DNA of 64,000 nt from a virus (Duplodnaviria; Heunggongvirae; Uroviricota; Caudoviricetes). Shown here one piece after another: positions 3,582-60,552 of the stretch. The translations under genes were made by a program, and so were the position numbers. The first letter of the stretch is position 1. Each line of letters starts with the position of its first letter. Where the stretch lies: positions 20,112 to 84,111 of IMG/VR virus record IMGVR_UViG_3300037384_000074; one strand, 5' to 3'. The notes beneath the pieces are model-generated. The model did no database searches. It saw nothing but the letters and a program-made list of their open reading frames with translations, and was not told the DNA's origin.

Positions 3582-5225
3582 ATGACTGCACGTTGGCTAA
3601 ACAAGGAATCGCGACAGTTTCTCAGTCGTGGTTACTTGCAAGGAGAGCAGACCGCCGAAGAAAGAATTCGTGAAATAGCAGAAGGCGCTGAGCGATATCT
3701 TTCTAAGCCAGGATTTGCCGATAAATTTGAACAGTATGTGTTGAATGGCTGGGTATCTATGGCCTCCCCTGTATGGGCCAACTTTGCCACTGATAGAGGC
3801 CTTCCAATTAGCTGTAACGGCGTCTACGTAGACGACACTATGGACAGCATTCTCCACAAGGTCGCTGAAGTAGGGATGCAGACTAAGGAAGGTGCCGGCA
3901 CTTCCGGGTATCTGGGAGCTCTAAGACATCGTGGCGCAGCAATTCGTACTGGCGGTGAATCATACGGTCCAGTACACTTCCTTGAGATGTTCGAAACAAT
4001 CACGAATGTAGTCAGTCAGAGTAACGTTCGTAGAGGCTCATTTGCCGCATATCTCGACATTGAACACCCTGATATCAAGGAATTCCTCACTATTCGTGAA
4101 GAAAACTCACCAATGCAGAAGATGTCTTTCGGCGTTTGTGTGACGGATAAGTGGATGGAAGAGATGGTCAATGGCGATAAGGACAAGCGCAAGACCTGGG
4201 CCTCTGTCATTCGCCGGCGCTTCGAGACTGGTTATCCCTATATTTTCTATACTGATAACGTTAACAATGCTCGACCTCAAGTCTACAAGGATAAGGGTGT
4301 AAAGGTACACGCTTCTAATCTCTGCACTGAGATCATGCTACCTTCTTCCGAAGACGAATCATTCGTATGCTGCTTATCGTCACTTAACCTTTTATATTAC
4401 CTCGAATGGAAGGATACTGATGTTGTAGAGACGCTAACTTACTTCCTTGATGCAGTGTTGACAGAGTATATCAACAAGACTCTTGGCAAGAAGTTCATGG
4501 AGCCCTCTCGCAATTTCTCGATTAATCATCGCGCTATTGGTGTAGGTATTCTCGGATGGCACTCATTCCTACAGTCTCAGAATATTGCTTTTGAATCGAG
4601 TGAAGCGCGCGACTATAACGTTGAAATCTTCAAGACTATCGATGAACGTACGCTTGAAGCTTCGAAAGAAATGGCAATTCTATATGGTGAGCCGCCTATG
4701 CTAAAGGGCTATGGCTTAAGAAACACAACTAGAATGGCCGTTGCACCGACAACGTCGTCTTCATTTATTCTAGGACAGGTTTCACCTTCTTCTGAGCCTG
4801 AAAATAGTAATTACTACACTAAGGATCTTGCAAAGGGCAAGCACACCTACAAGAATCCTTGGCTTAAGGATGTATTGAAGAGCCATAAGCAGGATAATCC
4901 AGAGGTTTGGAGATCTATTCTTGTAAATGGTGGTAGTGTTCAGCATCTATCCTTCTTGTCTGAACATGAAAAGAATGTATTCAAGACGTTCGGCGAGATC
5001 GCTCAGATCGAAATTATCACACAGGCTGCTGCTCGTCAGTTGTTTATCGATCAGGGACAGAGCATTAACCTGATGGTTCATCCTGAGGCAGACCTAAAGG
5101 ATGTCAACAACCTGATGATTGAAGCGTGGAAGCTCGGAATCAAGAGCCTTTATTATCAGCGCTCAACCAATCCTGCTCAGCAGCTTGCTAGATCTCTACT
5201 GTCATGCGAATCATGTGAGGCGTAA
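3582..5225 (+). CDS. nrdA: ribonucleotide reductase class I large subunit, no ATP cone
   Basis: Active-site motifs LPISCNG, ASNLCTEI and a C-terminal CESCEA cysteine pair; 547 aa, so it is a short form without the N-terminal ATP cone. Confidence 0.85.
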   Translation: MTARWLNKESRQFLSRGYLQGEQTAEERIREIAEGAERYLSKPGFADKFEQYVLNGWVSMASPVWANFATDRGLPISCNGVYVDDTMDSILHKVAEVGMQTKEGAGTSGYLGALRHRGAAIRTGGESYGPVHFLEMFETITNVVSQSNVRRGSFAAYLDIEHPDIKEFLTIREENSPMQKMSFGVCVTDKWMEEMVNGDKDKRKTWASVIRRRFETGYPYIFYTDNVNNARPQVYKDKGVKVHASNLCTEIMLPSSEDESFVCCLSSLNLLYYLEWKDTDVVETLTYFLDAVLTEYINKTLGKKFMEPSRNFSINHRAIGVGILGWHSFLQSQNIAFESSEARDYNVEIFKTIDERTLEASKEMAILYGEPPMLKGYGLRNTTRMAVAPTTSSSFILGQVSPSSEPENSNYYTKDLAKGKHTYKNPWLKDVLKSHKQDNPEVWRSILVNGGSVQHLSFLSEHEKNVFKTFGEIAQIEIITQAAARQLFIDQGQSINLMVHPEADLKDVNNLMIEAWKLGIKSLYYQRSTNPAQQLARSLLSCESCEA

Positions 5226-13371: not shown

Positions 13372-14901
13372 ATGGGTAGCATGGATACATTTTATACGTA
13401 TGTCGGTCAGCATTGGGATGATATCTTAGTGTCTGGGTATGAAAACGGCATCAAATTTAATCGCAAAGTCAAGTATACTCCTTATCTTTTCGTACCAGGC
13501 AATGGCGAATTCAAGACTGTTGACGGTAAGAATCTCTCACGGATTGACTTCGATTCGATCAAAGAAGCTCGTGAATTTGCAAAACAATACGATGAGATCG
13601 CTAATTTTAAGATTTACGGTCTTTCAAACTATCCTTACGTGTATCTCTATGAGAAATACCGTAAACTTAGTGTAGATGCTAAGAAGATTCGAGTTGGTAA
13701 TCTCGATATTGAGACTGATTCACAGGATGGGTATGGCAATATCCAGTTGGCTGATAGAGCCATTGTATCAATTACAATTAAGGTACTCCGCGAAAAGGAA
13801 ATTTTCGTACTCGGGCTCAAGCCATACCAGACGGAAGAGCCTGAATTGCTCGATATGATCACCAAAGGCTACAAGATCAAGTATGTTGAGTGTGTAAATG
13901 AAGCAATGCTGTTGCGTCGTTTCATCAAGATATGGCAGCATTTAGAGCTCGACGCCACGATGGGGTGGAACTCTAAAATGTTCGATATTCCATATATTAT
14001 CAAGCGGATTAAGCAGACCCTTACAGAAAAGGATGCTCTTGAACTGTCGCCTTTCAATCGAATTGACAAGGGCGAAGTCACTATGTATGGAAGAGTGAAC
14101 GATGTGTTCACTATTTGTGGCGTTCCTCACCTTGATTACATTGAGGTATACCAAAAGTTCTCCACGCCTGCGAACGGTAGAGAGGAGTCATATACTCTTA
14201 ACTATATCTCAGGTAAGATTTTGAAAGCAACTAAGCTCGATTATTCTGAGTATAGAACGCTTGCTGCACTATATAATCAGAATTTCAACAAGTTCATCGA
14301 CTACAATATCATCGACGTTCTACGTGTTGAGCAGCTTGAAGAGTACCTAAAATATCTTGAACTAGTGTTCACGATTGCGTATTTTGCAGGCATCAATTAT
14401 GAAGATACGTTTGGAACGATTCGACCTTGGGATATTATGATCCATAATTACCTTATGGATCGCGGGATTGCAATTCCCACAAAGGTTAGAAACACCAAAG
14501 AACGTCAGATCGCAGGTGGACATGTTAAGGATCCACATGTTGGCCGCCATGAACATGTAATTTCATTCGATTTTACAAGCCTCTATCCGATGTTGATTCA
14601 ATCTTTCAATATTTCTCCTGAGACTCTTCTAGGGTCTTTCGACCCAGTTGTTGGTGATTATTCAGTTGATAAGATCCTTTCAGGTATAATGTCACAGTAT
14701 GTTGACGAGATGGTCGAAAATAACGTGGCTATTACGGGTAAGGGAACTGTTTTTTCACGAGATAAACAAGGATTCATGCCGGCTTTGATGCAAGAGTTAT
14801 TTGCCGAACGTAAGCGATATACTGCGATCGAAGAGGCGGCAGATGCTAAGTTAGCTCCGGTGATGACTGAAATTGAGCGTAGAGGAATTAAGACGAAGTG
14901 A
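13372..14901 (+). CDS. DNA polymerase family B, N-terminal portion (exonuclease domain + motif A), gp43-like
   Basis: FDFTSLYPMLIQSFNISPETL equals pol-B motif A and aligns with T4 gp43 FDLTSLYPSIIRQVNISPETI. The ORF ends with ...IKTK immediately before motif B. Confidence 0.85.
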   Translation: MGSMDTFYTYVGQHWDDILVSGYENGIKFNRKVKYTPYLFVPGNGEFKTVDGKNLSRIDFDSIKEAREFAKQYDEIANFKIYGLSNYPYVYLYEKYRKLSVDAKKIRVGNLDIETDSQDGYGNIQLADRAIVSITIKVLREKEIFVLGLKPYQTEEPELLDMITKGYKIKYVECVNEAMLLRRFIKIWQHLELDATMGWNSKMFDIPYIIKRIKQTLTEKDALELSPFNRIDKGEVTMYGRVNDVFTICGVPHLDYIEVYQKFSTPANGREESYTLNYISGKILKATKLDYSEYRTLAALYNQNFNKFIDYNIIDVLRVEQLEEYLKYLELVFTIAYFAGINYEDTFGTIRPWDIMIHNYLMDRGIAIPTKVRNTKERQIAGGHVKDPHVGRHEHVISFDFTSLYPMLIQSFNISPETLLGSFDPVVGDYSVDKILSGIMSQYVDEMVENNVAITGKGTVFSRDKQGFMPALMQELFAERKRYTAIEEAADAKLAPVMTEIERRGIKTK

Positions 14902-14920
14902 CAATTAAGCTAAATAGAGG

Positions 14921-15697
14921 ATGAAACCAAACAGTAAAAAACAGTATATTCAAGAATTGGCCCCAATAATCCAGAACCTCTTAGATTCTGGACTCTCACT
15001 AAGTGAGGGTTGTACTAAACTGGGATTAATATACCACGCGACCTACGCTTTGTTAAAACGTCATACTAATTTAGTAATATCTACTAAGACTAACGGTAAA
15101 AGTGCATCAACATTAAAGGCCTTTCAAAATAAGATCAAAATTCCTGATTCCGAATTAGAAACGATAAAAGATCTATATTTCAATGAAATGATGTGTTTGA
15201 GCGCAATAGGTAAACGTTATAATACAACAGGTGCGACAATTATGTCTTTTATGAAAAGACATAATATCGTTAGACGAACTCATCTCGAAAACAAAATTCG
15301 AATGCTAGATCGACCTGAGTATAGAGCTCAACTAAAAGATTGGGGTGTTCAAGGATATCTAGCTAGACGAACTACACGAACTAAACCTGAACGATTGTTT
15401 GCAGAATTTCTTGAACGTAATAATATAAAATATGAAGAGCAATTTAGACGAGTAGGTAACAAGCACCCTTACGATTTTCGATTGAAAGACTACAATACGT
15501 TAGTTGAAATAGATGGACATTATTGGCACTCCAAACCTGAACAAAAACTGAAGGATGATATTCATACTAATGATGCAATTTCTAAAGGATTTTATGTGGT
15601 CCGTATTTGCACCAGTCAGTTAAAAAATGATAGTTTTAAAGTTATATTAGAGAGATTTTTGAATGAATGTGGATACTCTGTCGAATTTATCGAATGA
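14921..15697 (+). CDS. homing-endonuclease-like protein (Vsr/DUF559-type PD-(D/E)xK nuclease domain) inserted in the polymerase gene
   Basis: The C-terminus VEIDGHYWHSKPEQKLKDDIHTNDAISKGFYVVRI matches the DUF559/Vsr endonuclease pattern (E.DG..H ... D ... G..VvR). AGAGGA RBS. Different codon and amino-acid usage (K/N-rich) from its neighbours. Confidence 0.55.
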   Translation: MKPNSKKQYIQELAPIIQNLLDSGLSLSEGCTKLGLIYHATYALLKRHTNLVISTKTNGKSASTLKAFQNKIKIPDSELETIKDLYFNEMMCLSAIGKRYNTTGATIMSFMKRHNIVRRTHLENKIRMLDRPEYRAQLKDWGVQGYLARRTTRTKPERLFAEFLERNNIKYEEQFRRVGNKHPYDFRLKDYNTLVEIDGHYWHSKPEQKLKDDIHTNDAISKGFYVVRICTSQLKNDSFKVILERFLNECGYSVEFIE

Positions 15698-15813
15698 GGA
15701 ACTGACTAAACACCGTGATTCTCTCGAGCAAGAAGTGTTCCAGAATCATGGGTTTAGCAGCGCGATAAAGGTGTTACTTTAACGGGGGGTACGGCGCACT
15801 TTCGAACGAACAC

Positions 15814-16875
15814 ATGAGGTGGTATGCCGATGATCTAGCAGAGAGTATTACTCTTTCCGGCCAGCTCTCGGTTAAATGGGTAGAGCGTGACGTCAATTTG
15901 TTCCTCAACAACCTATTGAAGACCACTGATGTCGATTATATTGTTGCGATTGACACCGATTCTTGTTATGTGAAGGCTGACGCAGTTGTAAAACGCGCCT
16001 TCAAGGAAGAAACATACGATCAGGAAGAAGTCACTGTATTCCTTGAGAATTTTGCTGCAAAACTTGAACAGGTGATCGCTAACAGCCTTGAAGAACTATA
16101 TATATCAACCAATATCTTCGAGAAGAAGCTTCATATGAAGCTGGAAGCAATTGGTTCTGCTATTTGGACTTCCAAAAAGCACTATGTAATGGCTCTGAAG
16201 TCGTTCAAGGGAGTTCATCACTTCCCTCCAAAGATCAAGATGCAGGGAATCGAGGCAGTTAGATCATCAACGCCTAAGTTCTGCCGTGAGGCAATTAAGG
16301 AAGCTATTCCTAAGATCATTGAGGCAGATCGGGATTGGTTGAAAGCATTCATTGAAACCAAGCGTGAAGAGTTCTCCGAACTACCATTTGATCAAGTAGC
16401 ATCTCCTAGAGGTGTTAGTGATATCGACAAGTGGTTCGACAAGGACTCAATTTACATCAAGCGTACGCCGATCCAAGTGCGTGGAGCATTGCTATATAAT
16501 AACAAGGTAGCAACGACGAAGCTCAATTACGATCTTCCAATGATTCGTAGCGGTGACAAAATTCGATTCTGCTATATGAGACTACCAAATCCGTTAATGG
16601 AGAACGTGTTTGCTGTTCCGGATGAGATGCCAGAAGCGTTCCAATTGGATGACTACATCGATTATAGCAAGCAGTTCGATAAAACGTTCATGGAGCCAAT
16701 CAAGAATCTAATCAAAGCAGCAGGTATCGATATATCTGACAAGATCGACATCACTCAATTCTTCTCGGAGCCGCTTGCAGAGGAAGACCAGGATCCTACT
16801 GCAGGTCTCGATCTAATTGAAGACGATGGGTTCTGGGATAATACTGAAGAGGAAGATACAGTTTGGATAAACTAG
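15814..16875 (+). CDS. DNA polymerase family B, C-terminal portion (motif C + thumb). The motif B sequence is encoded in-frame upstream of this ATG, from 15769.
   Basis: YIVAIDTDSCYV is motif C (DTDS). The in-frame upstream codons 15769-15813 read RCYFNGGYGALSNEH, which matches T4 KILINSLYGALGNIH (motif B). Confidence 0.8.
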   Translation: MRWYADDLAESITLSGQLSVKWVERDVNLFLNNLLKTTDVDYIVAIDTDSCYVKADAVVKRAFKEETYDQEEVTVFLENFAAKLEQVIANSLEELYISTNIFEKKLHMKLEAIGSAIWTSKKHYVMALKSFKGVHHFPPKIKMQGIEAVRSSTPKFCREAIKEAIPKIIEADRDWLKAFIETKREEFSELPFDQVASPRGVSDIDKWFDKDSIYIKRTPIQVRGALLYNNKVATTKLNYDLPMIRSGDKIRFCYMRLPNPLMENVFAVPDEMPEAFQLDDYIDYSKQFDKTFMEPIKNLIKAAGIDISDKIDITQFFSEPLAEEDQDPTAGLDLIEDDGFWDNTEEEDTVWIN

Positions 16876-20004: not shown

Positions 20005-20294
20005 ACACGGCGTATAAGATTGCTGTTCTAGTCGCACTCGGTTCCGTTATGGCCGCATGCGCTAAACCTCCAGCGCCAGTAGTAATTGATCAGACGAGGA
20101 CTGTTGTAATTGCGCCTCCGGAAACTCTTTTGAAATGTCCTGAGTTGAAACAACTGCCTAATCCTGATACTCTAACAAATCAGCAGGCTGTGTCAGTTAT
20201 ATCTAAGCTGGTTGAAAATAACCAAACCTGTGCAATCAATATGGCTCAAATTAAAGCCTATGTAACCCGAGCTAAGGTCACTCATGCTGACTAG
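20001..20294 (+). CDS. outer-membrane spanin lipoprotein (o-spanin, Rz1-like)
   Basis: Signal peptide with lipobox VMAAC, proline-rich AKPPAPVVI segment, conserved Cys; ATGA overlap with the i-spanin gene. Confidence 0.6.
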   Translation: MNTAYKIAVLVALGSVMAACAKPPAPVVIDQTRTVVIAPPETLLKCPELKQLPNPDTLTNQQAVSVISKLVENNQTCAINMAQIKAYVTRAKVTHAD

Positions 20295-49596: not shown

Positions 49597-49680
49597 ACTA
49601 GGTATGCAGAATGGGGCTGCCGGCTGCTCATAACGGTCTCCCGCAAGGGCGAGTAGGTTCGATTCCTACACCTAGTACCA
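49597..49680 (+). tRNA. tRNA-like gene, anticodon CAU (Met or Ile-lysidine), encoded CCA, atypical long variable arm
   Basis: 7-bp acceptor stem ACTAGGT/ACCTAGT; D arm GCAG-aatgggg-CTGC; anticodon loop CUCAUAA; T arm GTAGG-TTCGATT-CCTAC; discriminator A then CCA. A 14-nt variable arm and A at position 8 are atypical. Confidence 0.5.
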
Positions 49681-59353: not shown

Positions 59354-60552
59354 GCGAGTATTTAGTGAAGCAGAGGGCTATTAGGTATAGATCTCCCACG
59401 CATGCAGGAGGTCGAGAAGGGTACAACGACACCGTCCCTTACCTGAGTTGCTATTGCGGGGACAAACGGCACTCGATGATTCTAGATCAATTCGATGCCT
59501 CTGTTTCACTAAGTATTTGTTGACTTTATACGCCTGTAGATTGAATATCTACGTGCACAGTAGTAAACGGATGTGTGGTGGACCACAGGGCCCTCTGAAA
59601 AGGGCCCGTTCTGGGTTCGATTCCTGGCTCTGGTTTGATCTACAGGCGTATAAAGTCAAGCTGTTTGAAATGTGAATTAGAACTTCTGAACTGAGCTTTG
59701 ATGGTATATCACCTTATGGGAGAATGGCCCATGGGTAGATATTCGGGAACAATCGTATGGAATGCTGCAACATTCCTATATAAACCCCGACCATTTGCAG
59801 ATGGCTCGCTTGAACTAGCGACGAGTCAAGGCTCTGTTCAGAAGTTCTTTAGTGTCATATTCGCAAATTATAGAATACAACGTTGAGTGTTGAATCAAGC
59901 GAAAGAACGGGTCGACCGATCAGGCAACTTCGTGGAAATAAATACACTAGCGGCGAGTTAGGCTACCTGAAAGCAATCCTCGTGTAACAGAGTTAGGGTG
60001 ATGTAAACTGTGGCAAGTAGTGAATTGGTCGAAATTCACGAAAGGATCATAGGCTAAGTTGGATAGTAGTCGAAGAGGTTCGGCCGAACTTTTAGGTGAA
60101 ATTTGGCGATGCAGCATGACAGGTCCAAAAATAAATCCTGCTGTGTAGGTGGAATCCCTACCCCTTACAGATTTGAATTGACTGAGTGACGGTTTCCAAG
60201 GTATGCGAAAGTAGGAGCGTCGTTTCACTCTGAGGATAGCAGAAAAAGGCGGGTAGAGCTTAATAGGCTCCTGTGGGGTTTGCCGCCAGGTATTAGTACG
60301 GAACGTGAGTTTGGCAGAAATGCCGGAAACGGAACTCTCTCCTGAAAGTTATCTGTCCACCGACAATACGAATTGGCTCTCTGGCGAAATGGTAGACGCA
60401 CCTCGCGAAGAGTTGATGGAAGTAGTAAGCGAAGGATATCATGTATTAGCTAGTGCATGATTTGAGAATGCGCTGCGAAACGGGATGCGAAGATTCTAGC
60501 TGGATAGAGGCGCCGCGATACCAGTGAGGAATAATAGCAGAACACCATTGTT

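Follow-up and report, generated by a model that had tools for sequence, protein, structure and literature searches.

The locus described here raises the question of how a phage makes the catalytic motif B of its replicative DNA polymerase when the codons for the core of the motif stand in a reading frame without a start codon. It occupies positions 13,372 to 16,875 of a 64,000-nucleotide stretch of viral DNA (hereafter, the window; positions 20,112 to 84,111 of the IMG/VR record IMGVR_UViG_3300037384_000074), in whose coordinates all features are given. The locus is a bicistronic family-B replicative polymerase (PolB) of a T4-like phage, split in the finger tip into gp43A and gp43B. Comparison with related phages makes it very likely that gp43B is completed by programmed +1 ribosomal frameshifting. 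The features of the locus are as follows.

13372–14901, plus strand: gp43A, the N-terminal cistron of the split PolB, with the N-terminal, exonuclease and palm motif A domains and the first finger helix; natural stop codon at 14899–14901.
14503–15809, no strand assigned: tract of 1307 nucleotides (nt) without mismatch to strain L014, comprising the 43A 3′ end, the endonuclease gene, ORF1 of 43B and the frameshift cassette.
14921–15697, plus strand: homing endonuclease gene (HEG), assigned as Vsr-like/EDxHD, 258 amino acids (aa), with an N-terminal DNA-binding region and a C-terminal nuclease domain (GNKHPYDF...VEIDGHYWHSKP).
15663–15782, plus strand: gp43B open reading frame (ORF) 1, frame 0, with ATG at 15663 and 39 codons (MNVDTLSNLSNEELTKHRDSLEQEVFQNHGFSSAIKVLL), then TAA at 15780–15782; encodes the beginning of finger helix P with the motif-B lysine.
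15768–15773, plus strand: Shine–Dalgarno (SD)-like element AAGGTG (K-V codons), ending 3 nt 5′ of the CUU shift codon.
15774–15776, plus strand: TTA, the codon that spaces the SD-like element from the shift codon; the sole variable part of the cassette across its carriers.
15777–15783, plus strand: putative shift site CTT-T-AAC, with CUU for the P site and UAA (15780–15782) for the A site, then C; T15780 is the extra base, and AAC (15781–15783) would be read after the shift.
15781–16875, plus strand: gp43B ORF2, +1 frame, from NGGYGALSNEH MRWY... through motif C (DTDS), the palm and the thumb; stop codon at 16873–16875.

The gp43A ORF encodes 509 aa, ends in ...RRGIKTK and matches the Pfam families DNA_pol_B_exo1 (1.9e-17) and DNA_pol_B (2.3e-14). 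The last 35 nt of the HEG overlap the start of 43B. In the frame of ORF2, the first ATG is at 15814; the 353-aa ORF that it opens (15814–16875) shares one frame with gp43A and scores 21.9 bits against Pfam DNA_pol_B, below the cut-off. Upstream of this ATG, the frame-1 codons 15769–15813 encode RCYFNGGYGALSNEH and are preceded by TAA at 15766–15768, and no ATG, GTG or TTG is present in frame 1 between this stop codon and 15814. A preliminary description of the DNA had reported the two polymerase parts in a common frame, the 258-aa endonuclease-like ORF, and the start-less frame-1 codons, and each was found as reported. It had missed the ORF in the third frame, 15663–15782, in which frame 0 of 43B reads MNVD...SSAIKVLL, meets CTT-TAA-C (15777–15783) and is continued in the +1 frame by NGGYGALSNEH.... 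The conceptual +1 product has 403 aa and an intact motif B (AIKVLLNGGYGALSNEH), with VLLNGGYGALSNEHMR as the predicted trans-frame peptide. When ORF1 and ORF2 are joined, the DNA_pol_B score rises from the 21.9 bits of the 353-aa ORF to 38.6 bits. Motif B can only be made via a +1 shift at CTT-TAA-C.

The homology of the joined product extends without a break over the junction. The nearest isolate, Rhizobium phage RHph_I1_18, has an unsplit polymerase of 887 aa and the gene order phoH, pol, small ORF, uvsX and dnaB-like helicase in common with the window. In the alignment, gp43A and gp43B are collinear with this polymerase, and the frame-0 peptide with its +1 continuation matches it (...QQKIAEFNNKQMAMKILLNSGYGACSNEHFRWY). 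The conceptual +1 product (query 11–357) aligns unbroken over the junction with RHph_I1_18 (55.7%) and with approximately 2500 other phage polymerases. Upstream of the junction, ORF1 aligns with the N-termini of intact 43B proteins, e.g., P0002 (MKPLTELTNEELQELHDSLEQRVAQYHGFSHAVKILLNGGYGAL), which is encoded on contig L008 and is the closest relative (84% aa identity). Relative to L008, the window carries one extra T (AAG GTG TTA CTT T AAC GGG vs. AAG ATC CTG CTG AAC GGC), so that CTT-TAA closes frame 0 and the rest of motif B is in the +1 frame. The motif-B region of L008 is uninterrupted (...AVKILLNGGYGALSNEH), and its type of motif B is AAGATCCTGCTGAAC.

The extra T is not an artefact. An identical site is present in the Logan contigs of SRR36367014 (L007) and in L014, an independently assembled strain (ENA) of 97.4% identity, in which the sole nearby nucleotide polymorphism (15810) is synonymous in frame 1. 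The site is also identical in L015 (SRR25435845), a clearly diverged phage with a flanking nucleotide identity of ~76%; here, a 30-nt block around the site (15756–15785) is identical, whereas its flanks have drifted. Over the 11 codons before the ATG (15781–15813), all six codons changed between the window and L015 are synonymous in frame 1, while the changes are mostly non-synonymous in the other frames. Over 15781–16020, the expected frame contains 35 synonymous and 10 non-synonymous changes and no stop codons, as compared with 4/41 and 4/43 (synonymous/non-synonymous), with stop codons, in the other two frames. On the 5′ side of the site, stop codons close all frames but frame 0, in the window as well as in L015. 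Both frames are under purifying selection in the diverged carriers. Moreover, L015 has AAT at the equivalent of the window ATG 15814, and internal initiation therefore cannot explain the expression.

The string AAGGTG-NNN-CTT-T-AAC was found at the same K-V-x-L|N-x-x-Y-G codon position in 10 contigs (the window, L014, L015, L018, L025, L038, L039, L040, L045 and L046) that represent at least five polymerase lineages. Among these carriers, 43B identity at the amino acid level is 36–90%, and it is 36–55% between carrier lineages, as against 84% between the window and L008, a non-carrier. The spacer codon is TTA, TTG, CAA or TCT, and the rest of the cassette is invariant: AAGGTG is present in 10/10 carriers, while none of seven non-carriers (0/7) has AAGGTG or CTT at these codons; the codon after the shift is AAC in 10/10 carriers and never AAT, which is used in 2/7 non-carriers; and the stop codon is UAA in every carrier. 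All homologues examined share the N and the Y-G of motif B without exception. The carriers were retrieved in different ways. L018 came from a pattern scan of IMG/VR with the K-V codons left free; L025, L038, L039 and L040 came from a pattern scan of Joint Genome Institute (JGI) metagenomes with AAGGTG fixed; and L045 and L046 were found by protein search, after which their DNA was read. In four lineages, the SD-like element was not imposed by the search. The remaining pattern matches were chance hits: both matches in the genome-collection scan, and likewise, in unrelated sequence, the viral matches L016 and L017 and 15 of the 19 metagenome matches. A metagenome scan with the pattern restricted to N-G-x-Y-G-A had no match; as the window's own contig was also missing from the output, that collection does not contain this phage. 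Megablast of the region against 50,697 phage records gave no match. Within the window, AGGTGNNNCTTTRAC occurs once, against an expected number of 0.

Taken in its parts, the cassette resembles the frameshift site of prfB. The E. coli prfB site reads AGGGGG-UAU-CUU-UGA-C, and that of the window AAGGUG-UUA-CUU-UAA-C; each has an SD-like element, a 3-nt spacer, CUU for the P site and an in-frame stop codon for the A site, followed by C. The AGGUG of the cassette is complementary to the 3′ end of 16S rRNA. An SD core is located upstream of ~45% of the window ORFs, compared with 20% in the background, and SD pairing appears to be used in this phage. Sites of the prfB class need no downstream structure, and no RNA structure stands out around the shift site here (z = 0.72). 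The frameshift consensus of prfB has been described as CTT_TGA_C with an upstream SD stimulator (PMC3711429), and the CUU-stop +1 sites in RECODE are all from prfB (PMC10885494). Some differences are nevertheless clear. The stop codon here is UAA, which is read by release factors 1 and 2 (RF1 and RF2), so the autoregulatory logic of RF2 does not apply, although the mechanics are alike. Moreover, the host gene encodes a phage DNA polymerase subunit and the site lies inside a catalytic motif, and the distribution is patchy and polyphyletic, in contrast to the near-universal occurrence in prfB.

On the strength of this likeness, the following course of events is proposed. Translation of 43B would begin within the HEG 3′ end, at ATG 15663, and after 39 codons the ribosome would have CUU (15777–15779) in its P site with UAA in its A site. 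The anti-SD of this translating ribosome would pair with the SD-like AGGUG located 3 nt upstream of CUU, and UAA followed by C would terminate poorly or slowly. The peptidyl-tRNA-Leu could then re-pair from CUU to UUU, with AAC decoded next. The outcome would be the 403-aa gp43B, motif B included, pairing with gp43A, while ribosomes that terminate instead would release a 39-aa peptide. That the shift is ribosomal is inferred, as is its efficiency, and gp43A and gp43B would be expected to assemble into one polymerase. Several points weigh against this interpretation. The support for frameshifting comes from sequence comparison. Since UAA is read by both release factors, the efficiency may be below that at the prfB UGA. 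The scan that yielded four of the carriers had AAGGTG fixed, so that unbiased support for the SD-like element comes from four lineages. Finally, an essential enzyme would have to tolerate the cost of such a shift. A phage-encoded tRNA-Phe, considered as a helper of the shift, was dropped, as neither tRNA predicted by ARAGORN is supported by Rfam.

Four other explanations of the locus were weighed against programmed frameshifting. The one favored in the preliminary description takes the 870 nt between 14901 and 15772 as a compact group I (or other) intron with an endonuclease ORF, whose removal would join ...IKTK to CYFNGGYGAL. Parts 1 and 2 are indeed in the same frame, K-CYF-N formally fits K-x3-N, and motif B is a real intron site in the relative L009. 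However, the Rfam covariance-model scan for group I and group II cores, which that description had proposed, gave no match in 14500–16200 at E ≤ 10 (RF00028 included) and none in the whole window at the gathering score, while the same tool, as a positive control, finds the L009 group I intron at 84.1 bits (E = 8e-22). In addition, the removal would delete 39 conserved codons of 43B, and the junction IKTK|CYFNGG matches no homologue; the homologues read ...A(I/V)K(I/V)LLNGGYG, preceded by ~36 residues that are encoded within the supposed intron. The terminal K of 43A, which was to supply the catalytic lysine, is not conserved and therefore cannot do so, and the motif-B lysine is located in ORF1. 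The other comparison that had been proposed, with relatives free of the insert, also speaks against an intron, since L008 lacks the HEG and keeps the 43A stop and the 43B start here. The intron is the least probable of the alternatives and is rejected. The same description had named another recoding event as a further possibility; recoding in kind stands, but the shift leads from frame 0 to frame 1 within the second cistron and does not join part 1 to part 2.

The extra T as a sequencing or assembly error, or as the mark of a dead polymerase gene in a defective genome, is scarcely credible. Indels of one base in T runs are the most common type of artefact, and JGI labelled the polymerase pieces hypothetical proteins; yet, the same base occurs in independent assemblies and samples and recurs in the 10 contigs of at least five diverged lineages, always within the same cassette, the substitutions on either side are synonymous in a frame-specific manner, and this core essential gene sits in an otherwise intact 136-kb contig. 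Expression without recoding would yield three pieces, namely 43A, the 39-aa peptide and a 353-aa protein from ATG 15814 or a non-canonical start, and the N-x2-YG core would be left untranslated. This is highly unlikely. ATG 15814 is present in the window, and family-B polymerases tolerate splits in the fingers (PMC3061061). Against this stand the AAT of L015 in place of that ATG, the lack of ATG, GTG and TTG between the frame-1 stop and 15814, the perfect conservation of NGGYGALSNEH through six synonymous codon changes out of six between the window and L015, and the invariance of the motif-B N and Y-G. A repair of the frame in the RNA, with one U lost through transcriptional slippage or editing, is also very unlikely, if a little less so. 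The extra base is part of a three-T run, and transcriptional realignment is known in bacteria and phages (PMC5009743). However, known slippage tracts are far longer than T3, and the invariant features, namely the SD-like element with its 3-nt spacing, the stop codon and the C after it, matter for a ribosomal +1 shift and not for polymerase slippage.

The split of the polymerase in the finger tip is borne out by its relatives. In a protein search with the 353-aa ORF, many second-half ORFs of 365–407 aa were retrieved, which start M..L(T/S)..EL... approximately 36 residues before the motif-B lysine; this lysine is 20–49 residues from the N-terminus in ~100 of the 207 retrieved homologues that have motif B. 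The 43A ORFs of the relatives have 488–509 aa and end at the same ...RRG(I/M/L)... position, with varied C-termini (RRGMETH, RRGLM, RRRGI and KRGIE) in which a terminal lysine is not conserved. In L008, 43A has 506 aa (...RRGMETH, then the stop codon) and 43B has 400 aa; the stop and start codons overlap as TGATG, and there is neither a nuclease gene nor a frameshift. In L011, 43A and 43B overlap by 11 nt. The TGATG boundary of L008 and the second-half homologues indicate that 14899–14901 is a true gene end and 15663 a true gene start, with the split in the finger tip. The 43A/43B boundary lies 36 codons upstream of the motif-B lysine, between two finger helices, and the split predates the HEG in this clade, as seen in L008 and L011. 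The preliminary description had placed the split inside motif B, had delimited an 870-nt insert and had deemed a two-subunit split less likely. None of these three statements can be kept: the inserted element measures ~760 nt (14902–15662), 15663–15780 is polymerase coding sequence, and the two-subunit split is correct.

Splits of gp43 in the finger tip have been documented in the T4-related phages 25, 44RR, 31, 65 and 133, with gaps from 2 bp to 3 kb (PMC2988022, PMC3061061). In phage 25, a seg-type HEG lies between 43A and 43B (Petrov et al. 2006, 2010; PMC2988022, PMC3061061), and the two subunits co-purify and are active (PMC2988022). Like those genes, the present locus has its polymerase divided between two cistrons at the finger tip, ahead of motif B, a layout in which a HEG sometimes lies between the cistrons. 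It differs in clade, as its nearest isolate, RHph_I1_18, is unsplit; in its HEG, which is of the EDxHD type and not a GIY-YIG seg gene; and in the +1 frameshift, of which none has been reported in phages 25, 44RR, 31, 65 and 133.

From its sequence, the 258-aa ORF is assigned as a free-standing Vsr-like homing endonuclease gene (EDxHD, I-Bth0305I-type) between 43A and 43B. As a single sequence, it matches Pfam Vsr (24.4 bits) and DUF559 (17.2 bits) below the cut-offs of both families, as well as PDB 3r3p, the catalytic domain of I-Bth0305I, at E = 0.014. A family profile of the ORF and seven database homologues reaches E = 3.4e-10 against 3r3p, and the best match to PHROG homing-endonuclease families is at 1e-16. 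I-Bth0305I itself is encoded within an intron, in recA of a Bacillus phage. The two nucleases thus have homologous catalytic domains, are borne by phages and are aimed at genes of DNA metabolism; unlike I-Bth0305I, the HEG of the window is free-standing, having its own start and stop codons between two cistrons, with no intron or intein around it. Every homologue with a readable context sits between 43A and 43B of quite different split-polymerase phages (L019–L022, L023 and the P0129 contig). The HEG is absent from the 84%-identical L008, which represents a presence/absence polymorphism at one locus. In two of the homologous loci (L019 2783–3538 and L023 3501–4106), the Vsr-like gene reaches into both neighboring cistrons, the overlap in L019 being 14 nt on the 43A side and 28 nt on the 43B side. 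In each host, the opening codons of 43B thus appear to come from the Vsr-like HEG, reminiscent of the N-terminal extensions that have been described where MobA and MobE are inserted.

The element is also better conserved than its flanks. Between the window and L015, the HEG is ~90% identical in nucleotide sequence, as compared with ~75–78% (~76%) for the flanking polymerase cistrons. The window and L014 are 97.4% identical (178 mismatches in 6777 nt, no indels), with 0 mismatches in 14503–15809 (P ~1e-24) and 40–45 mismatches per kb in 43A and the rest of 43B. The right edge of this tract is at most 27 nt from the frameshift site. The tract is interpreted as a unit of recent homing and co-conversion. 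Further downstream, uvsX and the small ORF show 20 and 6.5 mismatches per kb against L014, below the 40–45 of the polymerase, which suggests mosaic exchange in the replication module. In SRR36367014, two Logan contigs that match the window at 100% identity meet at 15644–15664, one ending and the other beginning there with an overlap of 21 nt, exactly where the HEG ends and 43B starts. The window has no HEG paralogue to account for this break, which may reflect coexisting variants with and without the HEG in the sample.

At the 43A/43B junction, a HEG is present in six or seven of the ten carriers: a Vsr-like gene in the window, L014 and L015, and a Mob-like HNH gene in L018, L025, L040 and L045, with L038, L039 and L046 having none. 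The Mob-like HNH family occupies the same junction (L018 4767–5921, L025 309–1127, L040 2–724 and L045 381–1205) and is ~28% related to HEGs of T4-type coliphages. A strict coupling of HEG and cassette was rejected, as L019–L023 have a HEG without the frameshift, and L038, L039 and L046 have the frameshift without a HEG. The link between the two is not obligate.

The first recoding element found beside a homing endonuclease is that of T4. In T4, gene 39/60 was split by the HEG MobA, against which the DNA is protected by a recoding insert of 50 nt, located at codon 46/47 in the downstream cistron; the gene 60 cassette persists after loss of the HEG or its replacement by VSR or GIY-YIG genes (PMC5009743; bioRxiv 10.1101/2022.08.31.505936). 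The present locus is like it in three respects. An essential replication-related gene is in two pieces with a HEG in the gap; the recoding insert opens with an in-frame stop codon ~40 codons into the downstream cistron (46/47 in gene 60 and 39/40 here); and the cassette is seen with a HEG, with another HEG type or without a HEG. However, a 1-nt insert with a simple +1 slip takes the place of the 50-nt hop, and the target is polB and not a topoisomerase. In addition, MobA split its gene, whereas the split here predates the HEG. Protection from the HEG has been shown for MobA and is hypothesized here.

By analogy, the 1-nt insert and its prfB-like decoding signal might form a mobile immunity cassette against HEGs parked at the 43A/43B junction, an idea that we regard as tentative, the balance leaning somewhat against it. 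The insert would disrupt the motif-B DNA target of the junction HEGs, and the cassette would be co-converted with the HEG and, as it were, "spliced out" by the ribosome. Only sequences that allow efficient +1 shifting would survive, which would explain the same 16-nt cassette in polymerases that are 36–55% identical. Two observations fit this idea, namely the inclusion of the cassette in the window/L014 identity tract and the group I intron of L009 at the neighboring codon. If true, the cassette would correspond, in a minimal 1-nt form, to the bypass cassette of T4 MobA/gene 60, and it would functionally take the place of the group I intron found at the adjacent codon in other phages.

Both the split and the HEG are of known kinds, and a prfB-like +1 site in motif B of a phage PolB appears to be new; the literature that was searched contains no description of a frameshift in a phage family-B polymerase. 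If confirmed, it would be an SD-stimulated CUU-stop +1 site outside prfB, in a catalytic motif of an essential phage replicase, recurring in diverse environmental T4-like phages. It would also be the second recoding element beside a homing endonuclease after T4 gene 60/MobA, and a much simpler one, which makes it testable whether recoding signals evolve as protection against selfish nucleases. Gene callers render such a locus as a "hypothetical" 39-aa ORF and a truncated protein without motif B, so that polymerases of this kind are mis-annotated in metagenomes; in the JGI annotation, the polymerase pieces of the window are hypothetical proteins.

Some minor observations were made on the window and on the relatives. 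ARAGORN predicts a tRNA-Met (84 nt) at 49597–49680 and a tRNA-Phe(GAA) at 59565–59636. The Rfam tRNA model finds nothing at either position, at the gathering score or at E ≤ 0.1, and a scan of the whole window at gathering scores returned no RNA family of any kind; the two tRNA calls are doubtful or atypical.

In L009, a contig of a related phage with a split polymerase (3754–4003; also in L010), an ORF-less group I intron of 250 nt (RF00028) interrupts motif B of 43B, with exon 1 ending ...AVKIL (CTT|) and exon 2 starting LNSGYGAL. Four retrieved proteins, P0026, P0028, P0030 and P0038, all start MLN(S/G)G(Y/F)GA, and an intron of the L009 type is therefore probably common in that clade. An origin of the cassette as a 1-nt scar of such an intron is not supported, as the two positions differ by one codon, with the intron (K-I-L|L-N) upstream of the extra T (K-V-L-L|N). 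In other clades, P0071, P0089, P0230, P0233, P0088, P0206 and P0218 are second-half ORFs that start in or just after motif B, e.g., VRWVSNEYFRWF, MPTVRWVSNQYFRWF and MNSLYGAMSN; these may represent further interruptions by introns, frameshifts or inteins, or artefacts of gene calling.

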